Assembly: GCA_041674925.1 (NCBI GenBank)
Contig: JBAYUW010000002.1
Location: 13,622-77,621, forward strand
DNA from: Minisyncoccota bacterium
Lineage (GTDB): Bacteria; Patescibacteriota; Minisyncoccia; Phycocordibacterales; GWA1-40-21
DNA: 64,000 bases
Direction of reading: 5' to 3'
Position numbers and translations under genes: made by a program. Position 1 is the stretch's first letter, and the number at the start of each line of letters is the position of its first letter. Below, piece by piece: positions 46,542 to 63,900 of this stretch. The notes below the pieces were generated by a model that was given only the letters and a program-made list of their open reading frames with translations, was not told where the DNA came from and made no database searches.

Positions 46542-46582
46542 ATTGGGTTTAATATAGCCTAAAATAAAGGGAAAAAATAGGC

Positions 46583-46611
46583 TTGACAAAAAAGGTGGTT
46601 GGGTGTATAAT
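46583..46611 (+). promoter_or_regulatory. Canonical promoter TTGACA-N17-TATAAT of cassette A
   Basis: -35 at 46583-46588 and -10 at 46606-46611. 32-nt module 46581-46612 is 29/32 identical to 50696-50727. Confidence 0.65.
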
Positions 46612-46645
46612 TCATGGGAAACTGTACACACAAAGGAGGTTTAAG

Positions 46646-46825
46646 ATGAGTGGGAAGACGTACGCGGTTATTGTTCTGTTTGTCTTGGTTGGGGCGATCG
46701 TCGCTTTTACCCCAAGTCTACGTACAGCGAACGAGGCAGAGCGCCTTATGCTCAAGTTCGGAAGACAGATACCGAGCGCCCCGATGGGGCCAACCATCGC
46801 CTGGCATCTGCGCCGTGGAGACTGA
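46646..46825 (+). CDS. 59-aa small membrane/secreted protein (cassette A)
   Basis: AAGGAGG 6 nt upstream of the ATG. MSGKTYAVIVLFVLVGAIVAFTPSLRTANEAERLMLKFGRQIPSAPMGPTIAWHLRRGD. 102/180 = 57 percent G+C by hand count. Confidence 0.55.
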   Translation: MSGKTYAVIVLFVLVGAIVAFTPSLRTANEAERLMLKFGRQIPSAPMGPTIAWHLRRGD

Positions 46826-46836
46826 GCAATCATCAT

Positions 46837-46878
46837 CCGCCCAGAAGACCGCCCGGAGGTCAACTGGGCGGTTTTTTT
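46837..46878 (+). terminator. Rho-independent terminator of cassette A
   Basis: CCGCCCAG...CTGGGCGG followed by TTTTTTT. An alternative 5' arm ACCGCCC lies at 46848-46854. Confidence 0.7.
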
Positions 46879-46949
46879 ATGGGGGGATGGGGACCTCGGC
46901 TCGGTTATACACAGCTAATTATGGGGTTAAAAAACAATAAAGTGCTAGA

Positions 46950-47600
46950 ATGCCAGACGTGCAAAATAAAAAGAGAAAAGCAATTTATGTTTTTATTGAC
47001 GCTTCCAATCTGTTTTATGAAGGAGAAAAAAGTTTAGGTTGGAAGATTGATTATAAAAAACTGTATGTTTATCTCCACAAAAAATATCAGGCCAGTAAGA
47101 TTTTTTATTTTGGCGGGGTGGAGATTCATAATTATCAGTATGATTATTTAGCCAATGATACAGTACCTATTTTTAAATTAAAACTTTATCTAGAAGGTCT
47201 TTTAAAAAATAAGACTAAAAGCTTAAGTCGAGACAATCTTGATTTAATTAATAAACACTTACAACGAATTAGTTTTTATGCAAAGCTCTCCACTTTTGGT
47301 TATGAACTTTTTCTAAAACCAGTAAAACTTTACAATCTTGGGGACGGGTTAATGAAGCGTAAGGCTAATTGTGATGTTGATATGAGTTTTCAAATAATGA
47401 AAGTAGTCGATAATTTTGATATGGTCATTTTTCTTTCGGGTGATGGAGATTTTTTACCAATATTGAAGTATCTAAGAAAAATCGGGAAAGAGGTAATCGT
47501 TTTAAGTCGTGGCCCCAGAACAGCCAAGGAAATAAAGCAACTAGCCGGAGGAAATTTTAGGGATTTTGAATATATCCGTAAATATATTGAGTATAAATAA
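46950..47600 (+). CDS. NYN/LabA-like domain protein (second paralog)
   Basis: 216 aa. IYVFIDASNLFY ... IFLSGDGDFLPILKYLRK. Confidence 0.8.
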   Translation: MPDVQNKKRKAIYVFIDASNLFYEGEKSLGWKIDYKKLYVYLHKKYQASKIFYFGGVEIHNYQYDYLANDTVPIFKLKLYLEGLLKNKTKSLSRDNLDLINKHLQRISFYAKLSTFGYELFLKPVKLYNLGDGLMKRKANCDVDMSFQIMKVVDNFDMVIFLSGDGDFLPILKYLRKIGKEVIVLSRGPRTAKEIKQLAGGNFRDFEYIRKYIEYK

Positions 47601-47601
47601 C

Positions 47602-47628
47602 GAACGGCACCCGCGAAGGATGCCGTTC
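47602..47628. terminator. 8-bp hairpin between convergent NYN and ruvB genes
   Basis: GAACGGCA-cccgcgaagga-TGCCGTTC. No clear U tract on either strand. Confidence 0.35.
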
Positions 47629-47672
47629 ATGTTTAGTGCCTAGATTATAGCATGGGTGTTTTTGAATGCAAG

Positions 47673-48713
47673 TTAAAGTAATTTATTCCTACTCTTCAAA
47701 TTCAAATGCTTCTTCGCCCTTTCGGTGACCACTCGTCCACGCGAAGTCCTTTCAATGAAACCAAGTTGTAGGAGGTATGGCTCGTAAACATCTTCGATGG
47801 TGGCTTGTTCTTCCGACAGGGCGGCGGCCAGGGTATTGAGTCCGACTGGTCCACCATTAAACTTTTCTTCAATTACTGTCAGTAAAGCACGGTCGGTTGG
47901 GTTTAAACCAACTTCGTCAATGCCAAGTAAATCAATTGCTTCCATCACAATTTCTTTTGACAAATCACTTTCACGAATTTGCGCCAAGTCGCGGCTTCTT
48001 TTTAAGAGATAATTGGCAGTGCGGGGGGTAAAGCGACTTCTTTTGGCAATTTCCTTTTTTGCTTCGTCAGCGATTTCTATTCCCAAGATTTTTGCCGAGC
48101 GTTTGATTATCTCTTCTATTTCTTTGTCCGAGTAAAATTCCAGTTTAAAAACTCCACCAGAGAATCTGGAGCGTAGGGGAGCGGACAGCATCGCAATGCG
48201 GGTTGTGGCGGCAATTAAAGTGAATTTAGGTAGGTCAAGCTGAATGGTGCGGGCCGACGGACCTTTACCAATAATAATATCCAGTGACCCACTTTCCATT
48301 GCGGGGTACAAAACCTCTTCAATCGTTTTATTTAGACGGTGAATTTCATCAATAAATAAAATATCGCCGGGAGAAAGATTGGTTAAGATGGACGCGAGGT
48401 CGCCAACTTTTTCAATTGCTGGGCCAGAGGTGGATTTCAGTTGAGCGCGCGTTTCGTGAGCAATTAAATGAGCGAGAGTAGTCTTACCAAGCCCTGGAGG
48501 ACCGTAAAAAAGTAAATGTTCGGGCGGATGCTGTCTTTGAGCGGCGGCCGTCAGTAAAATATGCAAATTGTCTTTAATGTTTTTCTGACCGATATAGTCG
48601 GCCCAAACGGTAGGGCGTAGGGTTTGATCTAAAAAATTAACGTCGCCCTTTTCGGGGCTAGTTTGCTGGTTTTTTAGGGAATTAGCTTGGGAATCTTGTT
48701 TTTTGCTTGACAT
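47673..48713 (-). CDS. ruvB: Holliday junction branch-migration helicase RuvB
   Basis: 346 aa. [20 protein letters not shown], winged-helix C-terminus. Confidence 0.95.
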
Positions 48714-48779
48714 ATTTTTTGTTTTATGCTAAGCTTACTAGTAGAAGCCTTTCACAATTTCTGGGGCTTTTTTTGTAAG

Positions 48780-48951
48780 TCCAGAATATAAATCTCTAAG
48801 CAATTGGATCGTTTGCGCGGTTTACGAATTTTTCCTAGAGGACGGCCTGGTTCACACCTTCGGGTGATTTGCGAGACCTATCCTTGAAGAACTATTTAAC
48901 TTTTGGTATCTAATATTAAAAGTATTGCTTAGAGATTTATCTTCTGGATCC
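48780..48951 (-). ncRNA. Candidate structured RNA (independent sRNA or ruvB 5' leader) closed by a 25-bp stem
   Basis: TCCAGAAtATAAATCTCTAAGCAAT (48780-48804) is the reverse complement of ATTGCTTAGAGATTTATcTTCTGGA (48924-48948) with one mismatch. The 119-nt GC-richer core has a CACC-TTCG-GGTG hairpin. A promoter lies immediately upstream on the minus strand. Confidence 0.4.
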
Positions 48952-48957
48952 TTTTTA

Positions 48958-48986
48958 ATCCTATCCCTCCACCGTTTCAATGTCAA
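48958..48986 (-). promoter_or_regulatory. Promoter TTGACA-N17-TAGGAT firing into the 25-bp-stem element
   Basis: -35 at 48981-48986 and -10 at 48958-48963 (minus-strand reading), inside the last codons of the pilB-like gene. The stem arm begins 9 nt after the -10. Confidence 0.5.
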
Positions 48987-50649
48987 TGACGCGACCAAGT
49001 TCAGGAAGAGAACTGACACCTGTCAAGACGCGGATAACACCATCTTGTTTCATATCTAATAAATTTTGTGAGGCGGCGGCCAGACGAATATCTCGATCGG
49101 AAGGATTATTTATTATTGCTTCCTCAATTTCTTTTTTCATTAAAATAACTTCCGTGATAGCAATTCGTCCGCGATAGCCAGTTTTGTGACACTTTTCACA
49201 ACCAACCGCCTCCCACACTTTTTCGGTCTGAAGGCCGGCCAAATAAGTCTTATCAGTAATTGATTCTAATGTTCTGTCTAAGAAGATACGCTCTTTAACG
49301 GTGGGAACTTTTTCGGTCTTACAATCAGGACATAATTTTCGAATCAATCTTTGGGCCATCGCCACATTAATCGCTGAGGAAATAATTTTTGGATTAACTC
49401 CAAGGTCAATCAGGCGGGGGAAGGCACCAGCTGCTGTGTTGGTGTGCAATGTAGAAAAGACCAAGTGTCCAGTTAAGGCAGAATTAATAGCGATATTCGC
49501 AGTTTCGCCGTCTCGGATCTCACCAACCATGATTACATCTGGATCTTGACGCAAGGCGGAACGCAAACCAGACAAGAAAGTATATTCTTTTTCTTCTTCC
49601 ACTTGCGTCTGTACAATTCCTGGTAGATGATACTCAATCGGATCTTCAATCGTAATAATTTTAATATCAGGGGAGTGAATCTTTTTCATGAAAGCATAAA
49701 GGGTGGTTGTTTTTCCTGAACCAGTCGGACCGGTAATTAAAAGCATACCGTTTGGTCTTTTGATCTGTTCCATCAGTGTCTCTAAAGTCCTTTTTTCAAT
49801 ACCCAAATCTTCAATCGGCACAGAAATAGATTTTGGGTTCAGTAACCTCATCACAATTGATTCATTGTATGCGCCTGGGAGAATAGAAGAACGAATTTCA
49901 ATATCATTATTTAATATTTTCACGCTAAAACGCCCGTCTTGTGAGGTGTTCTTGATATTTAATTTCATTCCCGACAGTAACTTTATTCGAGATAAAAGTA
50001 ATTCATAAGTTTCTGTGTCGAAAGTGCTGACATTGATCAACACACCATCCAAACGAAATCGAATATTCACGTCGTTCTCTTCTGGCTCGATATGAATGTC
50101 TGACGCCGATAAAGCCAAGGCCCCGGCGATCATCGCCTCCATCATTCTAGAGATTTTATAAGCTTTCTTTAGTGTGAGTATTTCTTTAATAATAACAGTG
50201 ATATCATCGATTTTTTTAATTTTATTAACAAATTCAGCAACTTGTTCAGAGGAAATATCGAAAGTTCCAGCCGTTGAGGTGGTGGCATAAGAAAGATCTT
50301 TATAGCGATCCCAAGCTTTTTCCAAACTCATGGTGGTCGCCATATTTATCTGAATTTTATAACCCTCAGCCTCCAAATTTTTCAAAATAATAACTGCTTT
50401 TTCGTTTTTAGGAGAGAAAAGAGCGACTTGAATTTTTTTGCCGACACGGGCAAAAGCGGCGATCTTGGCTTCGCGGGCCAAATCTTCAGGAATCAATCTC
50501 AAAGCTTCGGTATTGATAGGAATCGGTTTTAAATCAATGAAATTTAAACCATATTTGGTGGATAAGACCCGAATCAGTTCCTCCTCTTCTTTTTTGTAGA
50601 GGTCTTCAAGCCGTCTCTCTTGTTTTTCTTCATTGTCAAAAGTCGTCAT
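48961..50649 (-). CDS. pilB: GspE/PilB-family secretion/type IV pilus assembly ATPase
   Basis: 562 aa. Walker A GPTGSGKTTT, Asp box, Walker B VIMVGEIRD, His box TGHLVFSTLHTN, tetracysteine CPDC...CEKC. Confidence 0.9.
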   Translation of the reverse strand: MTTFDNEEKQERRLEDLYKKEEEELIRVLSTKYGLNFIDLKPIPINTEALRLIPEDLAREAKIAAFARVGKKIQVALFSPKNEKAVIILKNLEAEGYKIQINMATTMSLEKAWDRYKDLSYATTSTAGTFDISSEQVAEFVNKIKKIDDITVIIKEILTLKKAYKISRMMEAMIAGALALSASDIHIEPEENDVNIRFRLDGVLINVSTFDTETYELLLSRIKLLSGMKLNIKNTSQDGRFSVKILNNDIEIRSSILPGAYNESIVMRLLNPKSISVPIEDLGIEKRTLETLMEQIKRPNGMLLITGPTGSGKTTTLYAFMKKIHSPDIKIITIEDPIEYHLPGIVQTQVEEEKEYTFLSGLRSALRQDPDVIMVGEIRDGETANIAINSALTGHLVFSTLHTNTAAGAFPRLIDLGVNPKIISSAINVAMAQRLIRKLCPDCKTEKVPTVKERIFLDRTLESITDKTYLAGLQTEKVWEAVGCEKCHKTGYRGRIAITEVILMKKEIEEAIINNPSDRDIRLAAASQNLLDMKQDGVIRVLTGVSSLPELGRVIDIETVEG

Positions 50650-50697
50650 ATGAAAACATTATAACATAAACCATAAAAACTGAGTGGAATTTTATGC

Positions 50698-50726
50698 TTG
50701 ACAAGAAAGATGTTTGGGTGTATAAT
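50698..50726 (+). promoter_or_regulatory. Canonical promoter TTGACA-N17-TATAAT of cassette B
   Basis: -35 at 50698-50703 and -10 at 50721-50726. The ATG lies 7 nt after the -10 (leaderless). Confidence 0.65.
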
Positions 50727-50733
50727 TGTGGTT

Positions 50734-50880
50734 ATGAAGATCTTTCTGCTGGTGCTCGTTTTGGTTCTAAACATCGGCTGTGTAACGACAGGAAAAAAGG
50801 AAGAAAAAAGCGGTGAGCTGAACCTTGGAACCTTTCGGATCTGGGGTGAGGCGGAGATTGGATTGGAAACGTCCAATTGA
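50734..50880 (+). CDS. 48-aa small lipoprotein-like peptide (cassette B)
   Basis: MKIFLLVLVLVLNIGCVTTGKKEEKSGELNLGTFRIWGEAEIGLETSN. Hydrophobic signal ending in the lipobox-like LNIGC. About 46 percent G+C by hand count. Confidence 0.5.
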   Translation: MKIFLLVLVLVLNIGCVTTGKKEEKSGELNLGTFRIWGEAEIGLETSN

Positions 50881-50889
50881 GAAGGTGGT

Positions 50890-50932
50890 GGCGCGCGACG
50901 TGGACAGGTGTTCACAAAGCGCGCCTTTTTTT
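50890..50932 (+). terminator. Rho-independent terminator of cassette B
   Basis: GGCGCGC...GCGCGCC with an inner GTGGAC/GTTCAC extension, then TTTTTTT. Confidence 0.7.
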
Positions 50933-50953
50933 ATTTATGCTAATATATAAAGT

Positions 50954-51391
50954 ATGAAATTTTTAAGTAAGAATGTAGAGGAAACCAATAAGATTGCGCA
51001 AGATTTCTTGCAGAATTTAAAAGCTAATAAAAACAAGGCTACCTTAGTTGGTTTGTTTGGTGATCTGGGCTCTGGTAAAACTACTTTCACCCAAGCCGTC
51101 GGTCGGGAATTAGGAATCACTGATTTTATCACCAGTCCAACTTTTGTGATCGAGAAAATTTATCAACTCGACGGGAAATTTAATTTTAAAAATCTAATCC
51201 ATATCGATGCTTATCGTCTCGACTCCGGAAGAGAATTACAGGTTTTGGGATTTGAAGAAATTTTGAAAGATTCTCAGAATTTGATTTTATTAGAGTGGCC
51301 AGAGCGAGTAATCGATATCCTCCCAACCGACCTAGTTAAACTTAATTTTAAATTTATTTCAGAAAACGAACGGGAGATAGAAGTGTTATAA
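50954..51391 (+). CDS. tsaE: tRNA t6A biosynthesis ATPase TsaE
   Basis: 145 aa. GDLGSGKTTFTQ, HIDAYRL, EW. TGcTAATAT-N7-ATG. Confidence 0.85.
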   Translation: MKFLSKNVEETNKIAQDFLQNLKANKNKATLVGLFGDLGSGKTTFTQAVGRELGITDFITSPTFVIEKIYQLDGKFNFKNLIHIDAYRLDSGRELQVLGFEEILKDSQNLILLEWPERVIDILPTDLVKLNFKFISENEREIEVL

Positions 51392-51398
51392 TATCAGT

Positions 51399-53744: not shown

Positions 53745-53771
53745 AAAACCCCACGCGCTGATGCACGTGGG
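53743..53771 (-). terminator. Rho-independent terminator of cassette C (minus orientation)
   Basis: Minus strand reads CCCCACG-tgcatcagcg-CGTGGGG-TTTTTT. On the plus strand the A-run precedes the stem. Confidence 0.7.
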
Positions 53772-53786
53772 GGGGGCTGGCTAGAA

Positions 53787-53915
53787 CTATTTATACCAGC
53801 CCTTCTCACCCGTCCGAGACAGTTGCAACTCCCACCTTCTGGCTCTGTGGGCCAGGGCGTCCTCACGCCTCTTGAACCACCTTTTCAGCCTAGACATCAA
53901 AGTTGTCGTAGCCAT
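53787..53915 (-). CDS. 42-aa basic Arg/Trp-rich peptide (cassette C, second gene)
   Basis: AAGGAGG 4 nt upstream. MATTTLMSRLKRWFKRREDALAHRARRWELQLSRTGEKGWYK. 70/129 = 54 percent G+C by hand count. Confidence 0.45.
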   Translation of the reverse strand: MATTTLMSRLKRWFKRREDALAHRARRWELQLSRTGEKGWYK

Positions 53916-53930
53916 AGAACCTCCTTGTTT

Positions 53931-54041
53931 TCACCAACTCTCGGGAATCCATTCGGTTATGTATTTCAACATCCCAATTACGAGTGCTACGATCACGAGC
54001 ACCACAACCAGAATGGTAACAATCACTGCGAATGTTTGCAT
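53931..54041 (-). CDS. 36-aa hydrophobic single-TM peptide (cassette C, first gene)
   Basis: GGAGAG upstream. MQTFAVIVTILVVVLVIVALVIGMLKYITEWIPESW. Resembles type I toxin-like/small membrane peptides in composition only. Confidence 0.45.
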   Translation of the reverse strand: MQTFAVIVTILVVVLVIVALVIGMLKYITEWIPESW

Positions 54042-54084
54042 GAGACTCTCCATGCCCTTGTTGACCAATACCTATCCAGATAGT

Positions 54085-54112
54085 ATATTACAGATTAGTT
54101 TTAATTAGTCAA
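54085..54112 (-). promoter_or_regulatory. Promoter TTGACT-N16-TAATAT of cassette C
   Basis: -35 at 54107-54112 and -10 at 54085-54090 (minus-strand reading). Palindrome CTATC-tg-GATAG at the predicted start site. Confidence 0.5.
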
Positions 54113-54121
54113 ATAATAACA

Positions 54122-54805
54122 ATGATTTTTTTATTTCACGGAGACGATACAGCGAAGGCCCGAAAGGTTGCTCAAAAAAACATTGAAGCAGCCAAGAAGA
54201 AGCATCTCAAGGCTGAATTTTTTAAACTGAACAACGAAAACTTTTCGGAGAATCGACTCGACGAACTGATCGCCAGTCAGGGATTGTTTTATTCCGGTTC
54301 TATAATCTTTGCCGACAATCTTTTGGAAGAAGATGAGGTTTCTGAGATTGTAATCAAGAAGATGAAAGAAATTTCTACTTCCCCCAACCTCTTTATTTTC
54401 TTAGAAAAGAAATTAAACAAAAAAGAATTAGAAACTTTCAAAAAATATTCTCAAAAAATCGAAGAACTTAAAAAATTAGAAAAGAAACTAAACAAAAAAG
54501 AAGCCCTCGCTCTAAAAGGCGAAAAAATAGACTTTTTCGAATTTGCTAATGCTTTGGGTGATCGAAACAAAAAATTACTTTGGACTTTATATCAAGACGC
54601 CCTCGCGGAAAAGGTTCCCTCCGAAGAAGTGCATGGTATTTTTTTCTGGAAAGTAAAAAGCTTGCTTTCTTCTGGTTATACCAATCGTTATGATAAAAAG
54701 ACTCTGAAAGAAATGTCCACCAAACTTTTCAATATGTATCATCTAGCCCACCGTGGCGAAATCGATTTCCCGACAGCTTTAGAGAGATTTATTTTGGAAA
54801 TCTGA
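54122..54805 (+). CDS. Hypothetical protein, possibly a short DNA polymerase III delta (HolA)-like subunit
   Basis: 227 aa. N-terminus MIFLFHGDDTAKA recalls the holA start (..L.YGED.). Contains an internal in-frame 27-nt duplication. Confidence 0.35.
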   Translation: MIFLFHGDDTAKARKVAQKNIEAAKKKHLKAEFFKLNNENFSENRLDELIASQGLFYSGSIIFADNLLEEDEVSEIVIKKMKEISTSPNLFIFLEKKLNKKELETFKKYSQKIEELKKLEKKLNKKEALALKGEKIDFFEFANALGDRNKKLLWTLYQDALAEKVPSEEVHGIFFWKVKSLLSSGYTNRYDKKTLKEMSTKLFNMYHLAHRGEIDFPTALERFILEI

Positions 54806-54819
54806 TATAATCAAAAGGT

Positions 54820-55242
54820 ATGACTTACATTAAAAAATACAGTTTATATTTGATTTTTACTATCGCACTTGTTGGAACCCTGGTGAGCATTTATTTTAGC
54901 GACATTTTAGGCTGGGCGCCGTGCGTCTTGTGCTGGTACCAAAGGATATTTTTGTATCCAATTGTGATCATAAGCCTCGTTGGTATTTTACGTAAAGATC
55001 CACAGGTTCATGCTTATATTGTTCCCATGGCTATTATTGGAGCCTTAATTTCACTTTTCCATAATTTTCTTTATTGGGGGATAGTGCCAGAGAGTGCCGC
55101 ACCTTGTCAGGCTGGAGTTTCTTGCACCGCTGAATATTTGAAACTTTATGGCTTTGTGACCATCCCTCTTTTGTGTTTAGTAGCATTTGTACTGATTATT
55201 ATTCTTGCCTTTTTAAATAAAAAAAATTATGAAAATCAATAG
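54820..55242 (+). CDS. Disulfide bond formation protein DsbB/BdbC family
   Basis: 140 aa. 4 TM, CVLCWYQRIFLYP and a second Cys pair CQAGVSC. TGaTATAAT-N8-ATG. Confidence 0.8.
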   Translation: MTYIKKYSLYLIFTIALVGTLVSIYFSDILGWAPCVLCWYQRIFLYPIVIISLVGILRKDPQVHAYIVPMAIIGALISLFHNFLYWGIVPESAAPCQAGVSCTAEYLKLYGFVTIPLLCLVAFVLIIILAFLNKKNYENQ

Positions 55243-55870: not shown

Positions 55871-55916
55871 TTTCATTGGACATTTTGGTTTTTTCTTGTT
55901 ATATTCTTTGGCATAT

Positions 55917-55989: not shown

Positions 55990-56020
55990 CATTAAGTAAA
56001 TTATTCGTGACGACAATCGC

Positions 56021-56048
56021 TAGACAACCGGAGAATAAAGCATATAAT
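56021..56048 (+). promoter_or_regulatory. Promoter TAGACA-N16-TATAAT of cassette D
   Basis: -35 at 56021-56026 and -10 at 56043-56048, about 30 nt after the tRNA-Lys 3' end. Confidence 0.45.
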
Positions 56049-56116
56049 CTACCCTGGAGTAATTTGTTCCTTATCGTTACGAAACCGTCAGAACTAGAAC
56101 AGAAGAGGAGAAGAGC

Positions 56117-56548
56117 ATGAAGGTGATTGCACCTGCGGCAACATCCAAGATAGTCTTTGGACATATCACGCTTTCGCCGCCGGTAATCTCGGAAGCGGAA
56201 TATGGGGGGCTGATCAAAGACACCCGTATGCACTCGCGTGAAATTGAGAAGGAGTCCGGTCGTCGTTTGGTGTGTGATGTCGCCATGGGCTTGGAAAACC
56301 TGTTTCAAGCGATGCGTGATACGCCGCCAGAGATTAGCAAGATCGGAGTGGTATTCGTCTCGCGTCGGCTGGAAGATCAAGCCGTTGCGACTGTCAAATA
56401 CCTCGAAGACCTGCACCGGGAGGGATTGGTTTTTTTGTGTGATTTTGAACACAACAAGGAAGCCCTTGTGAGGGGAGGGAAAGGATTTTACCTCGCCCAT
56501 CACAGACATTTGCGACGTGGTGCCATTGTGAGCATGTTGGTGAGTTGA
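56117..56548 (+). CDS. 143-aa hypothetical protein in a GC-enriched segment next to tRNA-Lys (cassette D)
   Basis: GAGGAG 6 nt upstream of the ATG. MKVIAPAATSKIVFGHITLSPPVISEAEYGG... No motif recognised. Followed by a strong terminator. Confidence 0.5.
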   Translation: MKVIAPAATSKIVFGHITLSPPVISEAEYGGLIKDTRMHSREIEKESGRRLVCDVAMGLENLFQAMRDTPPEISKIGVVFVSRRLEDQAVATVKYLEDLHREGLVFLCDFEHNKEALVRGGKGFYLAHHRHLRRGAIVSMLVS

Positions 56549-56574
56549 GACGAGGGGGTGACGAACGGTAGACG

Positions 56575-56605
56575 GACTGCTGGCGGGTGCTGGCAGTCTT
56601 TTTTT
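56575..56605 (+). terminator. Rho-independent terminator of cassette D
   Basis: GACTGCTGGC-gggt-GCTGGCAGTC (10 bp including two G-U pairs) then TTTTTTT. Confidence 0.7.
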
Positions 56606-56623
56606 ATTTAAATTTTAAAATTA

Positions 56624-57040
56624 TTAAAGTAGTGGAATATCAACCGCAAACAAACCTGCGCCAGTGAGTAATAGTGAAAGACAAATTGTAGTCAACAAAA
56701 GATAAAAAACAAAATCTCTCTTCAAGATTGATTCTTCTTTGTATTCGATAAAAAGCTCGCATAAAGCAATTATGGCCAAGACCAGAGCGGTGATTTGAGT
56801 ATAGGCTCCAACGATAAGCAGGAGACCTCCAACTATTTCAATAATTCCTAACAGGCTGGCGAAAAAACTCGCTGGATGAATATTTAAAATATTGAGGGCG
56901 CTGATCCAGCCTGGGCGTTCTTTGCTTAATTTTAATAAACCGAGGTTTAGAAAGATGAAACCTAAAACTACCCTTAAAATGAAAGGGGAAATCAGGCTAA
57001 AGGCAAATAATTCCGGGAAAAGATTAAAGGTCTCTGGCAT
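56624..57040 (-). CDS. DoxX-like small membrane protein
   Basis: 138 aa from the ATG at 57040 (MPETFNLFPELFAF...). 4 hydrophobic helices. The longer track ORF would overlap the trmH-like gene and its promoter. Confidence 0.55.
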   Translation of the reverse strand: MPETFNLFPELFAFSLISPFILRVVLGFIFLNLGLLKLSKERPGWISALNILNIHPASFFASLLGIIEIVGGLLLIVGAYTQITALVLAIIALCELFIEYKEESILKRDFVFYLLLTTICLSLLLTGAGLFAVDIPLL

Positions 57041-57113
57041 GAAAATATTATAACATAAAATTTGCCCTAGAACTCCCTTGCCAATATTTTTACAAGGTTT
57101 AGAATGTAACCCC

Positions 57114-57599
57114 ATGTTTAAAAAGAAAGAAACAATTGTCGTCCTAGATAATATCCGAAGCACCTTTAATGTCGGCTCGATTTTCCGCACGGCTGATTGT
57201 TTGGATGTTAGTAAAATAATTTTATGTGGCGTGACACCAACACCCCGCGATCGGTTTGGAAGACTTCGAGACGACATCAGCAAAGTCGCTTTAGGCGCCG
57301 AAAAAAATCTTGATTGGGAATATTTTCCTAAAATTTTTTGGACAATTAAACAATTAAAAAAAGAAGGTTATAAAATTATTGCGATTGAACAATCGGAGAA
57401 ATCAGTCGATTATAAAAAAATAAATTTAAAAAAAGAAAAGAAAGTTGTCTTTATTATCGGCAATGAAGTGAATGGCATCTCCAAACCAGTTTTGAAGCTA
57501 GCCGACAAAATCGCCGAAATCCCTATGCTTGGTAACAAAGAATCATTGAATGTTTCAGTCGCTTTTGGTGTGGCGATGTTTCGGCTGCTGGAGGTTTAA
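57114..57599 (+). CDS. SpoU/TrmH-family RNA 2'-O-methyltransferase
   Basis: LDNIRSTFNVGSIFRTAD, IGNEVNGIS, IPMLGNKESLNVSVAFGVAMF. ATG at 57114 preceded by TAGAAT-N8 (track start TTG at 57078). Confidence 0.85.
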   Translation: MFKKKETIVVLDNIRSTFNVGSIFRTADCLDVSKIILCGVTPTPRDRFGRLRDDISKVALGAEKNLDWEYFPKIFWTIKQLKKEGYKIIAIEQSEKSVDYKKINLKKEKKVVFIIGNEVNGISKPVLKLADKIAEIPMLGNKESLNVSVAFGVAMFRLLEV

Positions 57600-58460
57600 T
57601 TATTTCTGACACTTAGGACAAAAGTGCGTGCCTCGGCCGGCGTGTTTTATTTTCTCAATTTGTGTTTTGCAGTTTTTACACACCTGATTAGCTCGTCCAT
57701 AAACATTCAAATGTTTCACGAAGTTTCCTTTTTCACCTGTACTTCGGCGATAATTTCGAGAGGAAGTACCTTTATGTTTGATTGATAAGTTTAAAACATC
57801 GATAATCTTTTGATGTAGTTTTTTACTTTCCGAATTAGTAATCTTTCCAGCTTTTCTATTTGGCAAAATTCCAGCCAGGAAACAAGCTTCATCGGCATAA
57901 ATATTACCAATCCCGGCAATCAAAGTCTGATCTAAAAGAATTTGTTTCACCGTACGCTTGGGATATTTAGAGAAAAGATTTTCTAGATAATTTTGCGTGA
58001 AATCTTTTTCTAAAGGCTCTGGACCGTAATGCTCAATACTCGAAATTAATTCATCTTTGTTTAGTAATCTCGCCCAGCCGAATTTTCTTAAATCATTGAA
58101 ATACAAAACATCGCCGTTTTGAAAATGAAAAATTAAGCGGGTGTGTCGCCCCGGTGTCTGAACATCGTTGGTTGGATGACCACCAGAAATTAGATTTCCT
58201 ATTTTAGGTACAAAAATTAGTTGCCCGGTCATTTTTAAATGAAAAGCCACATGCTGATCTTCACCCAATTCCAAAATCAACATTTTAGCTCGTCGAGACA
58301 GACCAGAAATTTTCTGATTCGCCAATCTCTCTTGAAAGGTAAGAGGGGATAACGGCTTAATCGTTTTTGGCCACAAGACTTGGACTTTCGCGATCCTTTG
58401 ACCGGACAGCGATTTTTGTAGCTCTCTTTTAAGGGTTTCTACCTCTGGTAATTCAGGCAT
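57600..58460 (-). CDS. mutM: Formamidopyrimidine-DNA glycosylase
   Basis: 286 aa. MPELPEVE, H2TH region, C-terminal zinc finger CKNC...CPKC. Confidence 0.9.
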   Translation of the reverse strand: MPELPEVETLKRELQKSLSGQRIAKVQVLWPKTIKPLSPLTFQERLANQKISGLSRRAKMLILELGEDQHVAFHLKMTGQLIFVPKIGNLISGGHPTNDVQTPGRHTRLIFHFQNGDVLYFNDLRKFGWARLLNKDELISSIEHYGPEPLEKDFTQNYLENLFSKYPKRTVKQILLDQTLIAGIGNIYADEACFLAGILPNRKAGKITNSESKKLHQKIIDVLNLSIKHKGTSSRNYRRSTGEKGNFVKHLNVYGRANQVCKNCKTQIEKIKHAGRGTHFCPKCQK

Positions 58461-59734
58461 TATTTTATCTTAGCAATCTCTTCCTCGGCCACTCGGGCAT
58501 CACTCCAAGGCTCTTTTTGGCCATTGGCGCGCATGATATATGGATCAGTGCCTTTTCCCGTGATCAAAACGACCACGTTTTGATCAGCCTGAGCGAGCTT
58601 GGCGAGTCGAATGGCTTCCGAGATAGCCACCCGGCGATCAATAATCAGTTTTGGTTTTTTGTTTTTTATCTCCCCCGCCATTTGCTCGGCAATTTCCAGT
58701 GGATCATCATCATAAGGATCTTCGTCAGTGACAATAATTTCATCGCAATAATTATCGGCAATGGCAGACATTTCTTTTCTTTTCCATTTATCGCGTCCAC
58801 CTCCACAGTTTCCCAGAACACAAATTTTCTTTTTGTTGGGGAAAGTTTCATAAATAGCTTTCAAAGAATCTGGGGTGTGAGCATAATCAACAATTACCTC
58901 AATCCCTAAATTATTAGGAATTTTTTGCGCCCGGCCTTTTATTTCCGTCACTTTTTCTAAACCCGCCTTAATCGTTTCCAAGCTAATGCCAAGGGCTCGA
59001 GCATAAGATGTTGCCGCCAGCATATTATAAACATTAAATTTTCCCAGCAGTTTTGATTCTATTTCCATTTCTTCGCAGACAAATTTTACTCCATCATCAT
59101 GACAGACAATTGGCTCACCATCTTTGAGGGAGTAGGGGGCTTTTTTCTCGACATTAATATTCAAAAATTTATGTCCCTCTTTATCATCAATATTAGCCAC
59201 AATAATTTTCCCCTTCTTGGGCGAACTTTCCAAAGCCTTGGCAATTTTTAATTTAGCCTCGAGATACTTTTCGAAAGAACCGTGTGATTCGATATGCTCC
59301 GGGGCTATGTTTGTAAAAATTAAGGCATCCAGATCAATAAATTTGTGGCGATATTGTTTGGCCGCTTCCGAAGAAATCTCAACCACCGCATAATCGCAAT
59401 GAGCATCCACGGCCTGTCGTAGAAATTTCTGTGTGAAAAATCGTCCTGGCATGGTCATTTTCAACATATTTGGCTTGGAAATGTCACGAATTTTGAAACG
59501 CAAGGTGCTCGCTAATGCGGTAATGAAACCGGCTTCTTCCAAAATTGCATTCACAAATTCCACGGTCGAAGTTTTGCCTTTAGTGCCAGTCACCGCCACC
59601 ACTTTTATTTTTCGAGAAGGGAAGCGGTAAATAATTGCCCCAAGCAAAGCTAATAGGTAATGATAAACCGGCTGAAAAAAAGTAAAAACTTTCTTGGGTA
59701 TAAACTTTTTAATTGGTCTTAATATTTTGTCCAT
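58460..59734 (-). CDS. Mur ligase family protein (MurE-like, lacking the usual N-terminal domain)
   Basis: 424 aa. VTGTKGKTST P-loop, DYAHTPDSL. Hydrophobic N-terminal segment. Confidence 0.75.
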   Translation of the reverse strand: MDKILRPIKKFIPKKVFTFFQPVYHYLLALLGAIIYRFPSRKIKVVAVTGTKGKTSTVEFVNAILEEAGFITALASTLRFKIRDISKPNMLKMTMPGRFFTQKFLRQAVDAHCDYAVVEISSEAAKQYRHKFIDLDALIFTNIAPEHIESHGSFEKYLEAKLKIAKALESSPKKGKIIVANIDDKEGHKFLNINVEKKAPYSLKDGEPIVCHDDGVKFVCEEMEIESKLLGKFNVYNMLAATSYARALGISLETIKAGLEKVTEIKGRAQKIPNNLGIEVIVDYAHTPDSLKAIYETFPNKKKICVLGNCGGGRDKWKRKEMSAIADNYCDEIIVTDEDPYDDDPLEIAEQMAGEIKNKKPKLIIDRRVAISEAIRLAKLAQADQNVVVLITGKGTDPYIMRANGQKEPWSDARVAEEEIAKIK

Positions 59735-59737
59735 TTT

Positions 59738-60304
59738 TTATTTACCTAAATGTTTTAAAGCCGCTTTCACTTTTGCCCCAGTCTCTTTTATATTGGAATC
59801 AATATCTTTGAGTGCCTCACGAGCTTCTTTGTGGGAATAACCAAGCGATTTCAAAGCTTCCAGCGCATCAACTTCTTCTTTAATACTGTGTGCGGTTTCT
59901 TCTTCTGATGATAACTTGCCTTTTAATTCCAAAACTAATTTATCAGCCATTTTTTTACCGAGACCAGAAACTTTGGTCAGATGCGCTGTCTCGCCGGTGG
60001 AAATGGCTTTTTTCAGAGAGCTAATCGTCGCGACATTCAGTATCCCCATCGCGGTTTTGGGTCCGATACCCGAAACGGTGATGAGTAGTTCAAATAAATT
60101 CAATTCTTCGGCGGTTTTGAAGCCATAAAGATCGAGGGCATTTTCTCGGACGGCTAAATATGTCCACACACTTATTTCTTCTTTTTCTTTGACTGAGGAA
60201 ATTAGCTCGGTGGTCGCAAAAACCTTGTAGCCCAAACCGCTAGCCTCAATAATTAGAAACTTGTCTCGGCAACTCATGACCGACCCTTTTATATGTGAAA
60301 TCAT
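59738..60304 (-). CDS. ruvA: Holliday junction DNA-binding protein RuvA
   Basis: 188 aa. MISHIKGSV, two HhH motifs (VSGIGPKTA, VSGLGKKMA). Confidence 0.9.
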   Translation of the reverse strand: MISHIKGSVMSCRDKFLIIEASGLGYKVFATTELISSVKEKEEISVWTYLAVRENALDLYGFKTAEELNLFELLITVSGIGPKTAMGILNVATISSLKKAISTGETAHLTKVSGLGKKMADKLVLELKGKLSSEEETAHSIKEEVDALEALKSLGYSHKEAREALKDIDSNIKETGAKVKAALKHLGK

Positions 60305-60382
60305 CGTTTAATTATACATAAATTTGCATTTTATAAAAGTTTGTGGTAAGTTAGGCAGACAAGTTAAGTATTAAACAAATCA

Positions 60383-60649
60383 ATGCCAATCACTTCATCA
60401 GCCAAAAAAGCACTCCGCGCCTCAAAAAATAAGGCTCTTTATAATGCGCGCCGAAAGGACGCGGTTTCTAGTGTTGTCAAAAAGATCAAAAAGCTTGTTT
60501 CTGACAAGAAAGTAAAAGAAGCTGAGGCCTTACTCGCTACTGCTTATCAAGCAATCGACAAAGCTTATAAAACCAAACTAATTCACAAAAACACCGCCGC
60601 CCGCAAGAAATCTCGTTTAGCTAAGCTATTAGCAAAAGCCGCCAAATAG
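60383..60649 (+). CDS. rpsT: 30S ribosomal protein S20
   Basis: 88 aa. MPITSSAKKALRAS.K....N....; basic helical protein. Confidence 0.9.
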   Translation: MPITSSAKKALRASKNKALYNARRKDAVSSVVKKIKKLVSDKKVKEAEALLATAYQAIDKAYKTKLIHKNTAARKKSRLAKLLAKAAK

Positions 60650-60659
60650 GCGGTTTTTT
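60639..60659 (+). terminator. Rho-independent terminator of rpsT (overlaps its stop)
   Basis: CCGCC-aaata-GGCGG then TTTTTT. Confidence 0.6.
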
Positions 60660-60664
60660 GTTTG

Positions 60665-60736
60665 TGCCCCCACCAGGAATCGAACCTGGATTTCTTCCTT
60701 CGCAGGGAAGTGTCCTATCCATTGAACGACGAGAGC
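60665..60736 (-). tRNA. tRNA-Arg (anticodon GCG), no encoded CCA
   Basis: Acceptor GCTCTCG/TGGGGGC (three G-U pairs), anticodon loop CTGCGAA, T-arm CCAGG-TTCGATT-CCTGG. Confidence 0.8.
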
Positions 60737-60774
60737 AGTGACGAGCGCGTCAAGAAGACTTTAGCATAAGTCGC

Positions 60775-61236
60775 CTAAAATCCCAAGTACTCCATGATTT
60801 TATGAGCGGCGGGTTCTTGGAGTTCTTTTTCTTCGAGAAACTCTGCCAAGACATTAGCCACCTCATCGACGCTTTCTTCGTGAATCGGAATGATGATATA
60901 AGGCAGTAAATTTTTCTTAGACTTTAAAATTATTTTTGGTTCACCTTGGCGAGTTTCAATCCAAAAAGATTCGATGGTCAAATAAGGGTGCAAATCTTTA
61001 CCGACGATAACTCCACGTTGATTGATTTCATAATCCACCATTGATGGCTCGCGGAAAGTGTAGAAAACCAAAATTCCAGCCGATAGTAAAATCAAAATTC
61101 CAAACAAAGCATTGTTGTAGATAAAAGCTAAAACCGCAATACAAACGGTGATAATCCCAACTGCCCAAAACCAATCAGTACTTCTTTCATAATGATTGTA
61201 TTCCGGCGCTTGCCAAGTGAGCGACATTTTTTCCAT
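60775..61236 (-). CDS. Hypothetical two-TM membrane protein
   Basis: 153 aa from the ATG at 61236 (MEKMSLTWQAPEY...), preceded by TGcTATAAT-N9. The track start at 61257 is TTG. Confidence 0.65.
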   Translation of the reverse strand: MEKMSLTWQAPEYNHYERSTDWFWAVGIITVCIAVLAFIYNNALFGILILLSAGILVFYTFREPSMVDYEINQRGVIVGKDLHPYLTIESFWIETRQGEPKIILKSKKNLLPYIIIPIHEESVDEVANVLAEFLEEKELQEPAAHKIMEYLGF

Positions 61237-61302
61237 ACTGAGATTATTATAGCACAAATTTTGGTAGCAAGAAGTGTCTTAATAAGGTAAAATTACTTTT
61301 AT

Positions 61303-62697
61303 ATGAATTCGGAAAAAAATTTAACCTTTGTAATTATGGGGGCGACAGGAGATTTAGCTAAACTCAAGCTTATTCCAGCTCTGTACAAACTATTAAAACT
61401 CAATGTTGTATCCAGGGTTTCACTTATCGGTGTCGCTCGTTCGGTAGTGACGATTCAATCTATTTTAGACGAAGCAAAAAATAATATAAAAGATTTGGAT
61501 TTGGCGGTTTGGGATAATCTATGTCAGTCGGCTTACTATCAAAAACTAGATTTTGATAATATTGCTGATTTTGAAAATTTACACGTCAAGATAAAAGAAG
61601 TTGAACAAAAGCACGGTCTGTCTGGTAACCGATTATTTTACCTCGCCACCTTGCCCGAACATTTTGCTCGGGCGAGTGAAAATTTAGCCAAAGTCGGCTT
61701 GGTCAATAGTAAAGACAACAAGTGGGAAAGGGTTTTATATGAGAAACCTTTTGGCGACAATCATTCTTCTGCCAGACAAATAAATAAAAGTATTGATAAA
61801 GTCTTTGAAGAAAAGAATGTCTTTCGTGTCGATCATTATTTAGGTAAAGAACTGGTGGGGAATATCGCTTTACTTCGTTTCACTAATCGGATTCTAGAGC
61901 CATTGTGGAATAATAAGCACTTAGACTCGGTTCAAATTATTTGTGATGAGAATTTTGGAATAAAAAATCGTGGTAATTATTTTGATAAATATGGCGCCGT
62001 CAAAGATATGTTGCAAAATCATCTTTTGCAAATCTTGTCGCTGATTGCCATGGAATCACCAAAATTTTTGGCGGGAGAATATCTGCGTGATCAAAAAGTG
62101 AAGGTTTTGAAAAAAACTAAAGTGAAAGATATTATTCTTGGTCAGTATGATGGCTATACTCAAGAAAAAGGGGTGAGCGCTGATTCGACGACGGAAACCT
62201 TTTTCGCCGCGCGTTTGGAAATCAATAATAAAAGATGGCGGGGCGTACCGTTTTTTATTCGTTCTGGTAAAAACTTAAATAAAAAAGAAACTGTAATCCA
62301 TCTTCGTTTCAAAGCGGTGGATTGTCTCTTGTCAAAATCTTGCCCATCTGACAGTAATTATTTAACCATCAGAATCGAACCAAATGAAGGTTATTCCTTT
62401 GAATTAAATTCTAAATCTTTACGTCAGGGTTTTGAAATTGAAACTGTTGATATGGATTATTGTCATCACTGTCAGCATGGTGTTAATACTCCCGAAGCTT
62501 ATGAAATTTTACTTGAACAAGCGATCGCTGGAGAACAATCTGTCTTTGTGCGTAATGATGAAGTGGAATTAGCTTGGAAAATCGTCGATCGAATCCAAAT
62601 GAAAGATCAAGTCGTTTATAAATACCCAGTTGGCAGTTCTGGTCCAAAAGAATTAGCCGATTGGAATAAAAAAAATAATATTATATGGAAAAGCTAA
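61303..62697 (+). CDS. zwf: Glucose-6-phosphate 1-dehydrogenase
   Basis: 464 aa. GATGDLAKLKLIPALY, RVDHYLGKE, MLQNHLLQIL. Confidence 0.9.
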   Translation: MNSEKNLTFVIMGATGDLAKLKLIPALYKLLKLNVVSRVSLIGVARSVVTIQSILDEAKNNIKDLDLAVWDNLCQSAYYQKLDFDNIADFENLHVKIKEVEQKHGLSGNRLFYLATLPEHFARASENLAKVGLVNSKDNKWERVLYEKPFGDNHSSARQINKSIDKVFEEKNVFRVDHYLGKELVGNIALLRFTNRILEPLWNNKHLDSVQIICDENFGIKNRGNYFDKYGAVKDMLQNHLLQILSLIAMESPKFLAGEYLRDQKVKVLKKTKVKDIILGQYDGYTQEKGVSADSTTETFFAARLEINNKRWRGVPFFIRSGKNLNKKETVIHLRFKAVDCLLSKSCPSDSNYLTIRIEPNEGYSFELNSKSLRQGFEIETVDMDYCHHCQHGVNTPEAYEILLEQAIAGEQSVFVRNDEVELAWKIVDRIQMKDQVVYKYPVGSSGPKELADWNKKNNIIWKS

Positions 62698-63593
62698 AAA
62701 TCGGTTTTGTCGGCTTGGGTCGCATGGGCTCAAATATGGTTTTAAACCTTCTCGATCATGATTATGAGGTGGTGGTCTATAATCGTACCAAAGAAAAGAT
62801 GACCGAGACAGTAAATTATGGCGCCACTCCCGCCTCAACACTTTCCGAATTGGTGAGACTGTTACCGGACAGAAAAGTAATTTGGCTGATGGTGAATGCT
62901 GGTGAAGCTTTGGATCAGGTCTTGGCTGAACTCACTCCTTTATTAAATGCAGGTGATATTGTGATTGATGGTGGAAATTCTTATTATCAAGATTCACAAG
63001 CGCGTTACAGAAAATTAAAAGAAAAGGGTATAAGTTTTATGGATTGTGGCACTTCAGGCGGAATGGGTGGGGCGCGACACGGTGCTTGCTTGATGATTGG
63101 CGGTGATAAAGAGAGTTTTGACTATATAAGAAATATTTTCCGAGATTTAGCGATCACTGACGGCTTTGCTTATTTAGGAAATTCTGGCGCCGGTCATTAT
63201 GTAAAAATGGTGCACAACGGTATTGAGTACGGCATGATGTCGGCTTTAGGAGAGGGTTTTGAGGTAATAAAAAAATCTAATTTAAATATTGATTTAAAAG
63301 AAGTAGCCAAAGTCTATTCACACGGCAGTATTGTCGAAAGTAAATTGATGGGCTGGCTGGCGGAAAGTTTTAATGAAGAGGGCTATCTCGACAGTATTTC
63401 TGGGAATGTTCCAAAAGGAGAAACCGAAGAAGAAATGAAAAAATTATTAGTCGAAGCGGGTGGTGTAATGCCGACTTTGGATGTGGCGATAAAAGTCCGC
63501 GAGCAATCTCGTGTTTCATCTTCATACACTGGCAAACTGATTTCAGCGATGCGTAATAAATTTGGTGGACATAAGGTGAATAAGGCTGAGTAA
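62685..63593 (+). CDS. gnd: 6-phosphogluconate dehydrogenase (short, decarboxylating type)
   Basis: 302 aa. IGFVGLGRMGSNMVLNL, GNSGAGHYVKMVHNGIEYG. Overlaps zwf by 13 nt. Confidence 0.85.
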   Translation: MEKLKIGFVGLGRMGSNMVLNLLDHDYEVVVYNRTKEKMTETVNYGATPASTLSELVRLLPDRKVIWLMVNAGEALDQVLAELTPLLNAGDIVIDGGNSYYQDSQARYRKLKEKGISFMDCGTSGGMGGARHGACLMIGGDKESFDYIRNIFRDLAITDGFAYLGNSGAGHYVKMVHNGIEYGMMSALGEGFEVIKKSNLNIDLKEVAKVYSHGSIVESKLMGWLAESFNEEGYLDSISGNVPKGETEEEMKKLLVEAGGVMPTLDVAIKVREQSRVSSSYTGKLISAMRNKFGGHKVNKAE

Positions 63594-63603
63594 TATTTTA
63601 AAT

Positions 63604-63628
63604 AAAAAACCCACGTTGGTTGCGTGGG
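63604..63628 (-). terminator. Rho-independent terminator of cassette E (minus orientation)
   Basis: Minus strand reads CCCACG-caaccaa-CGTGGG-TTTTTT. Confidence 0.65.
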
Positions 63629-63635
63629 GAAGCGT

Positions 63636-63833
63636 CTAGGAATGAAAACTCAACTCTACTCGGTCAAATGACCCAGGCGCAGAACGATTCTCCACCGCAT
63701 GGCTCATCCCACGGGCTTGAGATTCGCAAACCATCGACTCCAGTTCTTCTTGGTCGCTTTTAGTCTGGGCGACAAGGATTATTCGAGCAAGGTTACGAAA
63801 ACTGCCTTCTGTGAATTCGTGTGTCACGATCAT
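63636..63833 (-). CDS. 65-aa hypothetical soluble protein (cassette E)
   Basis: GGGAG 5 nt upstream of the ATG at 63833. MIVTHEFTEGSFRNLARIILVAQTKSDQEELESMVCESQARGMSHAVENRSAPGSFDRVELSFHS. The track ORF begins at an upstream GTG (63863). Confidence 0.45.
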   Translation of the reverse strand: MIVTHEFTEGSFRNLARIILVAQTKSDQEELESMVCESQARGMSHAVENRSAPGSFDRVELSFHS

Positions 63834-63867
63834 ATATACTCCCATCACTTTACTTTTACCCACTTTC

Positions 63868-63896
63868 AGACTAACTCAGACGATTGACTCTGTCAA
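63868..63896 (-). promoter_or_regulatory. Promoter TTGACA-N17-TAGTCT of cassette E
   Basis: -35 at 63891-63896 lies inside the palindrome TTGAC-tct-GTCAA. -10 at 63868-63873 (minus-strand reading). Confidence 0.45.
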
Positions 63897-63900
63897 TCAA

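Follow-up and report, generated by a model that had tools for sequence, protein, structure and literature searches.

Five GC-rich small-gene units between the mostly leaderless housekeeping genes of a Paceibacterota bacterium: probable residence of three loci with conserved signals and diverged payloads

The stretch of DNA considered here (the window) comprises 64,000 nucleotides of contig JBAYUW010000002.1 from GenBank assembly GCA_041674925.1, a metagenome-assembled genome that carries the annotation Candidatus Paceibacterota and locus tags of the form WC027_…. Its housekeeping genes are interrupted by five short units, designated A to E and also referred to as cassettes, each of which is built around one or two small open reading frames (ORFs). 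A first-pass annotation of the window had described them as a recurring class of self-contained small-protein cassettes, and all five were found where it had placed them. The region including A and D is reproduced exactly in independent ENA and Logan assemblies; therefore, the units are not assembly chimeras.

Unit A holds an ORF of 59 aa (46646-46825, plus strand; GC content 0.567, GC content at third codon positions (GC3) 0.62) with an N-terminal membrane-spanning or signal-anchor segment and no cysteine. The ORF of unit B (50734-50880, plus strand; 48 aa, MKIFLLVLVLVLNIGC…; GC 0.463) encodes a lipoprotein-like peptide. Unit C is bicistronic, the other four being monocistronic, and consists of C1 (54041 or 54053 to 53931, minus strand; 36-40 aa; GC 0.44), a single membrane-spanning peptide, and C2 (53915-53787, minus strand; 42 aa; GC 0.543, GC3 0.67), a peptide with a net charge of +8. 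The products of D (56117-56548, plus strand; 143 aa; GC 0.516, GC3 0.56) and E (63833-63636, minus strand; 65 aa, or 69 aa with the start at 63845; GC 0.49, GC3 0.47) are predicted to be soluble, that of E also acidic. Hydropathy peaks reach 3.1-3.7 in A, B and C1 (3.08 for B of the window). The secreted or membrane character that had been proposed for the products is supported for several of them, namely the predicted membrane-spanning peptides A and C1 and, through its lipoprotein signal, B. As already suspected, no product has a recognised motif: Pfam, PHROGs, PADLOC and NCBIfam gave no family match for any of them, and no known protein family emerged from profile libraries or from a profile search of PDB sequences (best E = 0.33).

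Composition and expression signals of the five units

The G+C values that had been counted by hand for the A, B and C genes proved correct. The background, put at about 32% from a neighbouring gene, is in fact 38.7% across the window (standard deviation 5.2, 200-nt windows). No other GC peak of the window reaches those of A (0.60), C (0.575) and D (0.555), whereas B and E (about 0.505) do not rise above peaks within housekeeping genes. For the statistics, the six cassette ORFs (A, B, C1, C2, D and E) were compared with the 58 other ORFs of the window. GC3 separates the cassettes from the host genes more cleanly than GC, with 0.47-0.67 in the six cassette ORFs and 0.26-0.43 in the 58 others (Mann-Whitney p = 3e-5), so that the distinctness of the units from the rest of the window is upheld by this measure. 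The shift is general and mainly towards G-ending codons, the G content at third positions being 0.35 in the cassettes versus 0.18 in the host genes.

The expression signals set the units apart as well. In a promoter scan of the 64 kb, the only perfect (12/12) TTGACA-17-TATAAT promoters were those of A (46583..46611, plus strand) and B (50698..50726, plus strand), and the D promoter (TAGACA-16-TATAAT, within the promoter and 5' untranslated region (5'UTR) at 56021..56116, plus strand) is one of five matches at 11/12. These three fit a sigma-70 test (TTGACA/TATAAT, 16-18 nt spacing) and are conserved in relatives. The C promoter (54112-54085, minus strand) reaches 9/12 only, and the putative E promoter (TTGACA-17-TAGTCT; 63868..63898, minus strand), with 3/6 matches in its -10 box, was not reported by the scan; it is overlapped by the palindrome GATTGAC-TCT-GTCAATC. 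The sigma-70 promoter ascribed to each unit is therefore well supported for A, B and D, weak for C and doubtful for E.

A Shine-Dalgarno (SD) 5-mer lies upstream of five of the six cassette ORFs and of one of the 58 host ORFs (Fisher p = 5e-6), bearing out the earlier impression that explicit SD sites are a property of the cassettes which host genes largely lack. The sites are AAGGAGG at 46633-46639 within the 5'UTR of A (46612..46645), AAGGAGG upstream of 53915 for C2, GGAGAG upstream of the ATG at 54041 for C1 and GAGGAG for D, and the spacing to the start codon is optimal in the SD-bearing cassettes. B is the sole cassette ORF without an SD site and is leaderless. Intrinsic terminators close units A to D, with hairpins of -28 (A, 46837..46880, plus strand, formed by inverted repeat I2), -23.7 (B, 50890..50932, plus strand), -20.8 (C, 53745..53775, minus strand, abutting the polA stop codon) and -19 kcal/mol (D, 56574..56606, plus strand), each followed by 6-7 U. 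The E terminator (63604..63628, minus strand), 11 nt past the stop codon of the opposite-strand 6PGD gene, amounts to -9.4 kcal/mol, and the strong terminator claimed for every unit is thus found in A to D and not in E. The C, D and E terminators face the convergent neighbours polA, DoxX and 6PGD, respectively, and may serve both strands. The five units do not form one class, as common sequence is confined to A and B and, within these, to promoter and 5'UTR.

The host genes of the window are largely leaderless, SD-free and AT-rich. In 22 of the 58 host ORFs a -10 box, often TGnTATAAT, ends 4-12 nt 5' of the start codon, which marks these genes as leaderless; examples are found upstream of 44037, 50649, 51399, 54820 and 60304. 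The ribosomal protein S15 gene has the same layout, and the S20 gene is also without an SD site. Genomes assigned to 'group C' by GeneMarkS-2 are dominated by leaderless transcription and have their Pribnow box some 10 nt away from the start codon (PMC6028130), and the host genes of the window fit that type, whereas the cassettes are the exception in being leadered, SD-dependent and equipped with a -35 box. A literature search on SD or leaderless usage and on highly expressed small proteins in Patescibacteria returned nothing specific. A nearly identical 21-nt leaderless promoter and start motif (TTTATGTTATAAT(G/A)TTTTCAT, coding strand) occurs at 57039-57059 and 50650-50670, where it precedes the DoxX gene and pilB; its position places the DoxX start at 57041 (138 aa) instead of at the longest-ORF start, 57283.

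Units B, C and D in related genomes

A scan of the GTDB species representatives with RuvB identified related Paceibacteria that share a common backbone with the window (PBP-TyrRS-RuvC-YebC-RuvB-PilB-TsaE-PolA-g227-SpoU/DoxX-Fpg-Mur-RuvA-S20), and none of the six cassette peptides was detectable in these relatives. Much closer relatives were obtained by a metagenome scan anchored on g227 (54122-54805), a conserved 227-aa gene following polA that has no Pfam match and a sub-threshold similarity to the NCBIfam model holA, DNA polymerase III delta subunit (E = 1.4e-7, 31 bits, cut-off 80). The best of them was the contig Ga0172380_10000239 (L084; 38.6% GC), whose housekeeping proteins are 79-98% identical to those of the window, with the exception of TyrRS (64%). 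The synonymous sites of the two are near saturation (synonymous divergence, dS, 0.3 to >2). A further contig, L164, is nearer still, its PilB being 94% identical. In a blastn comparison of the window with L084, the backbone aligned at 75-83% identity and the alignment was interrupted exactly at the cassette payloads, so that the units coincide exactly with the collinearity breaks against this relative. L084 has B, C and D at the corresponding positions, and L164 has B there too, with retained promoters and terminators but strongly diverged payloads. For these three units, the earlier proposal of horizontally acquired modules is contradicted by the shared slots and the conserved signals in sister lineages, and among the four units whose slots are covered by the relatives, absence from the corresponding site was observed for A and its neighbouring NYN-domain gene only.

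For unit D, L084 encodes a homologue of 141 aa, 46% identical (tblastn E = 5e-37) and located directly upstream of DoxX. Conservation extends to its promoter, a portion of the 5'UTR, the surroundings of the start codon and the terminator, which faces the convergent DoxX gene. Identity at codon positions 1, 2 and 3 is 0.61, 0.75 and 0.40, and the proportion of differing nonsynonymous sites (pN, 0.31) lies below that of synonymous sites (pS, 0.76); this pattern indicates that D is translated and under purifying selection, and by this comparison D is certainly a coding gene, and a fast-evolving one. Its nonsynonymous divergence (dN) of 0.40 compares with 0.01-0.15 in 14 of the 15 neighbours compared, TyrRS reaching 0.30. 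Both orthologues have a GC3 near 0.56 despite saturated synonymous sites. A full HMMER search of 1.84 billion representatives and a word-indexed search of 5.8 billion proteins retrieved for D only the protein itself. The homologue surfaced solely through synteny on the metagenome contig, and the L084 copy is missing from the protein libraries, which makes absence from protein databases weak evidence. A single-sequence AlphaFold model of D (pLDDT 41.6) was unusable for function. The position of D next to tRNA-Lys, which had been pointed out before, is incidental: in L084 two other genes separate the tRNA from the D homologue, and tRNA-Lys is a backbone feature of the variable region that holds D.

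Unit B belongs to a slot between pilB and tsaE in which nine relatives carry a gene for a predicted lipoprotein of 92-159 aa. Such genes are present in L090, L092, L094, L097, L100, L105 and L101/L103, and the product is 108 aa in L084 and 103 aa in L164. The family promoter is TTGACA-N17-TATAAT, usually with GGGTG directly before the -10 box, and is conserved across the clade. An SD-like site is present in most members and weak or absent in L097 and L101; the genes have a GC content of 0.42-0.58 versus 0.36-0.41 for their loci. In window B and all nine relatives, MK(K) is followed by 12-17 hydrophobic residues as a predicted signal peptide, and the G-C core of the lipobox is kept in nine of ten aligned sequences, although position -3 is often non-canonical (N-I-G-C in the window, …LNIGC; S-G-C, T-G-C or F-G-C in relatives). 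The mature part is of low complexity and rich in G, Y, N and S, and in five of the nine relatives the C-terminus bears the motif [IV]P(x)AP…L(I/V)P, also rendered as [IV]P(x)AP..G(L/I)xP. The family is restricted to the clade of these genomes, a profile search of the 5.8 billion proteins having returned seven members only, none of them annotated. More distant relatives (L009, L011, L013, L014, L018 and L023) likewise have GC-enriched lipoprotein genes in the tsaE-pilB slot. Since the slot is GC-enriched across family-level relatives, B is an old resident gene whose GC-richness is intrinsic.

The B locus of the window departs from this pattern. In L084 and L164 it has an AAGGAGG leader, and the promoter is 97% and the terminator 88% identical in L164; the terminator is conserved in L084 as well. 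The window copy lacks an 18-20 nt segment with the SD site, which brings the ATG to 7 nt after the -10 box, and it is further shortened by 12 nt within the signal peptide and by the whole C-terminal half, where the family motif would lie. What can still be recognised is the signal peptide with its G-C, at 50% identity over 22 aa. Window B is thus a truncated allele of the 92-159 aa family of predicted lipoproteins. An origin by frameshift was considered and rejected, because the match in another frame covers just 7 residues (E = 1.2) and is not significant.

The short, monocistronic, strongly expressed lipoprotein unit has its archetype in E. coli lpp (Braun's lipoprotein). The B family is likewise a stand-alone gene, of 48-159 aa, with a signal peptide ending in G-C, a consensus promoter, a hairpin terminator and, in relatives, a strong ribosome-binding site. 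It differs in that no sequence similarity to lpp exists, the mature part is of low complexity and very fast-evolving with a C-terminal motif in five of nine members, and the bacterium, a Paceibacterium, presumably has one membrane only. The lipoprotein gene keeps its place, divergently transcribed from pilB, which might point to a connection with type IV pili. In L101 (3171-5400) and L103 (4624-6931), three tandem cassettes each follow a B-type promoter and encode a 329-aa Y/D-rich secreted protein (GC 0.32), a 159-aa lipoprotein (0.58) and a 176-aa membrane-anchored, apparently coiled-coil protein (0.54). Judging from this arrangement, the B-type promoter module is reused there for different predicted envelope proteins.

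Unit C lies between polA and g227, a slot filled only in the window and L084; in more distant relatives the two genes are adjacent. The divergent promoter region shared with g227 (54057..54121; g227 promoter 54061-54089, plus strand) agrees at all of its 65 bp (100% identity) with L084, and the C terminators of the two are 83-86% identical. The payload between these signals measures 276 bp in the window (C1 and C2) and 531 bp in L084, where its products are a multi-span protein of 116 aa and a second protein of 54 aa, and no similarity of C1 or C2 to the L084 payload was detected in DNA or protein. In the comparison of window 54057-55242 with L084 9936-11119, the 65-bp stretch adjoins genes of low dS (DsbB 0.31, g227 0.97), most neighbouring genes having a dS of 1.2-2. 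The two lineages may therefore have recombined here more recently, along a tract whose end coincides with the C payload.

Units A and E

Unit A forms, together with an NYN-domain gene (46950..47600, plus strand; GC 0.31) and a bidirectional terminator behind it (47600-47630), a 1.1-kb insertion between yebC and ruvB. In L084 10 bp separate yebC from ruvB, which are likewise adjacent in L006, L007 and L009, and the slot is filled by unrelated accessory genes in other relatives. The insertion (46542-47672) interrupts a ruvB-yebC-ruvC order that is contiguous in relatives and provides yebC with a new leaderless promoter (TATATT, 7 nt 5' of the ATG). The A promoter is identical at 26 of 29 positions to that of window B and 94% identical over 32 nt to the B-type promoters of L084 and L164; the 5'UTR aligns with those of the B family, and a 52-nt direct repeat joins the A promoter and 5'UTR to 50676-50727. 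Promoter and 5'UTR of A are therefore a copy of the native B-type module, the A promoter being a paralogue of it. The A ORF itself is a singleton protein cluster and absent from all relatives examined. Membership of the A protein in the B family is not claimed: the shared 'IPSAP' motif is suggestive, but a hidden Markov model built without A scores A no better than shuffled controls. Unit A would then be a newer unit in which the B-type promoter and 5'UTR were reused before an unrelated small membrane peptide, and which probably entered this lineage together with the NYN gene in one insertion. Another NYN/LabA gene, a stronger case, is located at 9674-10198.

Unit E is situated 55 nt downstream of an AT-rich 209-aa gene that is accompanied by an HNH endonuclease gene. 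In the word-indexed search of the 5.8 billion proteins it matched only itself, and neither D nor E had matches on viral contigs. With its weak promoter, E is best described as an ORFan and a putative gene. In the flank reaching beyond the window end (L002 17785-19008, corresponding to positions 63901-65124), the 209-aa gene (GC 0.29) has no Pfam domain but a homologue with 32% identity on the viral contig L166 of IMG/VR; the adjoining HNH endonuclease gene encodes 154 aa. The two look like an accessory or mobile-derived islet.

Origin and possible role of the units, and further features of the window

Taken together, the reading we favour, and hold to be reasonably probable, is that the five units are autonomous small genes, mostly for envelope proteins, among which B, C and D are resident loci with retained signals and fast-diverging payloads. 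Their description as self-contained genes of promoter, ribosome-binding site, small ORF and terminator, unlike the host genes in composition and architecture, stands. At least B, C and D are vertically inherited within the Paceibacteria clade, their expression signals being kept by purifying selection. Their payloads, presumably under weak or diversifying constraint, diverge several-fold faster than the neighbours through substitutions and indels, or are replaced. From the combination of strong promoter, SD site, GC-rich message and 3' hairpin, the small proteins would be expected to be expressed stably and at a high level; most of them are predicted to be targeted to the envelope as lipoprotein or membrane peptide. 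Rapid payload turnover fits cell-surface or partner-interface proteins of an episymbiont. Patescibacteria live attached to other cells, and the small proteins of their surface are hardly known. On sequence grounds the cassettes may be regarded as uncharacterised small envelope-protein genes, any family assignment reaching no further than the lipoprotein-like signal peptide of B. The unusual feature is the coexistence of an SD-dependent, GC-rich minority with conserved flanks and hypervariable payloads in a leaderless, AT-rich genome.

Several observations weigh against this reading. The high GC3 with its shift to G-ending codons is unlike the signature of classic translational selection, which favours C-ending over G-ending codons. 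Window B may be a decaying remnant and not a working gene, and E may be the last gene of the AT-rich accessory operon, co-transcribed with it, given its weak promoter and terminator. For C, rapid divergence and replacement of the payload are indistinguishable from the sequences, because synonymous sites are saturated between window and L084. Finally, the coding status of A, C1, C2 and E, which have no alignable orthologue, rests on SD-ATG geometry, hydrophobicity and GC3.

The main competing explanation, recent acquisition from a GC-richer, SD-using donor such as a host bacterium without amelioration so far, appears unlikely for the set as a whole. It would account for the atypical GC, GC3, SD use and promoter type, for the fact that all units are ORFans or nearly so, for the lack of A and NYN in L084 with its adjacent ruvB and yebC, for the location of D in a variable islet next to tRNA-Lys, and for the neighbourhood of E with an HNH endonuclease and a gene with a viral-contig homologue. 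It is difficult to align with the synteny of B, C and D in L084 (and of B in L164) with conserved native promoters and terminators, the common GC3 of about 0.56 in both D orthologues across saturated synonymous sites, the family-level GC enrichment of the lipoprotein slot, and a promoter and 5'UTR in A that match the native B-type. In addition, no donor homologue outside the clade was found among the 5.8 billion proteins and 1.84 billion representatives, and no mobility genes or flanking repeats were found for the cassettes in the window. Atypical genes in the sense of GeneMarkS-2 are usually AT-richer than their genome and taken as recent transfers (PMC6028130). The cassettes resemble such genes and ORFans in their deviating composition, their few or no homologues and their position at synteny breaks; they differ in being GC-richer, in holding their composition in orthologues across saturated divergence and in their conserved native promoters. 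Recent import is thus largely refuted for B, C and D; only for E and for A with its NYN gene is it plausible. Had the units been imported once, long ago, and drifted towards the host composition since, the saturated synonymous divergence and the family-wide GC enrichment would be hard to explain. The high GC3 might be kept up by selection for stable mRNA or by biased gene conversion that accompanies recombination.

That some units, notably B and E, are non-functional remnants, either decaying genes or chance ORFs in GC-rich spacer, is a somewhat less likely option. B has lost its SD site and 5'UTR, 12 nt of its signal peptide and the motif-bearing C-terminal half, E is an ORFan with a GC3 of only 0.47, a weak -10 box and a weak terminator, and long chance ORFs occur on both strands of GC-rich DNA. 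B nevertheless retains a perfect promoter, a start codon 7 nt after the -10 box, the distance usual for leaderless genes here, a signal peptide with G-C and a terminator, and purifying selection on D shows that the group as a whole is not junk. Even less probable, in our view, is a role of A and C1 as membrane-active toxins of a type I toxin-antitoxin or bacteriocin-like system, with C2 or an antisense RNA as antidote or regulator. Like Hok, Ldr, TisB and Fst, A and C1 are small, single-span and intergenic (36-59 aa, with own promoter and terminator), C couples a hydrophobic peptide with a very basic one, and the sequences turn over rapidly. Unlike these toxins, A and C have no antisense promoter of at least 9/12 in the promoter scan, no structured leader, since 5'UTRs and bodies are without excess structure that could mask the SD site, and no toxin family match in Pfam, PADLOC or PHROGs. 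Their consensus promoter and perfect SD suggest constitutive expression at full strength, whereas type I toxins are typically under tight repression, and the C slot of L084 codes for a 116-aa multi-span protein.

Structured non-coding RNAs with incidental ORFs are a highly improbable explanation for the GC-rich segments, although RNA genes classically stand out as GC-rich islands in an AT-rich genome, the promoters and terminators are strong and protein databases hold no homologues. Rfam searches at the gathering score and at E <= 10, covering the window and the GC islands of eight related loci, gave tRNAs only, and the transcripts minus their terminators folded no better than dinucleotide shuffles on either strand (z -1.9 to +0.9), as did host-gene controls. 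The spacing between SD and ATG is optimal, and the substitution pattern of D is that of a coding sequence, which refutes the RNA reading for D. None of the cassettes looks like a structured RNA, and GC and SD usage are distinct from the rest of the window, so that neither of the two outcomes named in the first-pass annotation as refuting it was obtained.

Rather unlikely, as we see it, is the idea that the units act as 'expression frames', in which conserved promoter, 5'UTR, SD site and terminator enclose GC-rich payloads for small surface proteins that are swapped or hyper-diversified, translated by the SD route and actively maintained in GC. If true, this would represent a two-tier system of gene expression serving surface variation in an episymbiont through an SD route abandoned by the rest of a largely leaderless genome, with GC upkeep through mRNA-stability selection or biased gene conversion and not through inheritance from a donor. 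Under the favoured reading of mostly resident small genes, recent horizontal transfer is not a necessary conclusion where a gene of a leaderless, AT-rich genome is GC-rich and preceded by an SD site, composition-based screens for transfer would misclassify such genes, and the question is raised why high GC3 persists in fast-evolving genes. As candidates for experiments, the analysis provides the clade-specific family of small lipoproteins encoded beside pilB, the gene of the pilus ATPase, the two membrane or basic peptides and the fast-evolving 143-aa protein, all of which would be expected to be strongly expressed from their signals.

Two further features of the window lie apart from the cassettes. 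A unit of about 185 nt on the minus strand (7305-7492) has an 11/12 promoter (7527-7499), a terminator (7329-7315) and no convincing ORF. Its fold is better than that of all shuffles (z = -3.68, 0/200 as good) with no Rfam family at E <= 1, and it is a candidate for an unannotated structured small RNA. The spacer at 39974-40191 between dnaA (38627-39973) and dnaN (40192-41292) has a GC content of 0.19 and contains DnaA boxes of the TTATCCACA type, and it is probably the replication origin.

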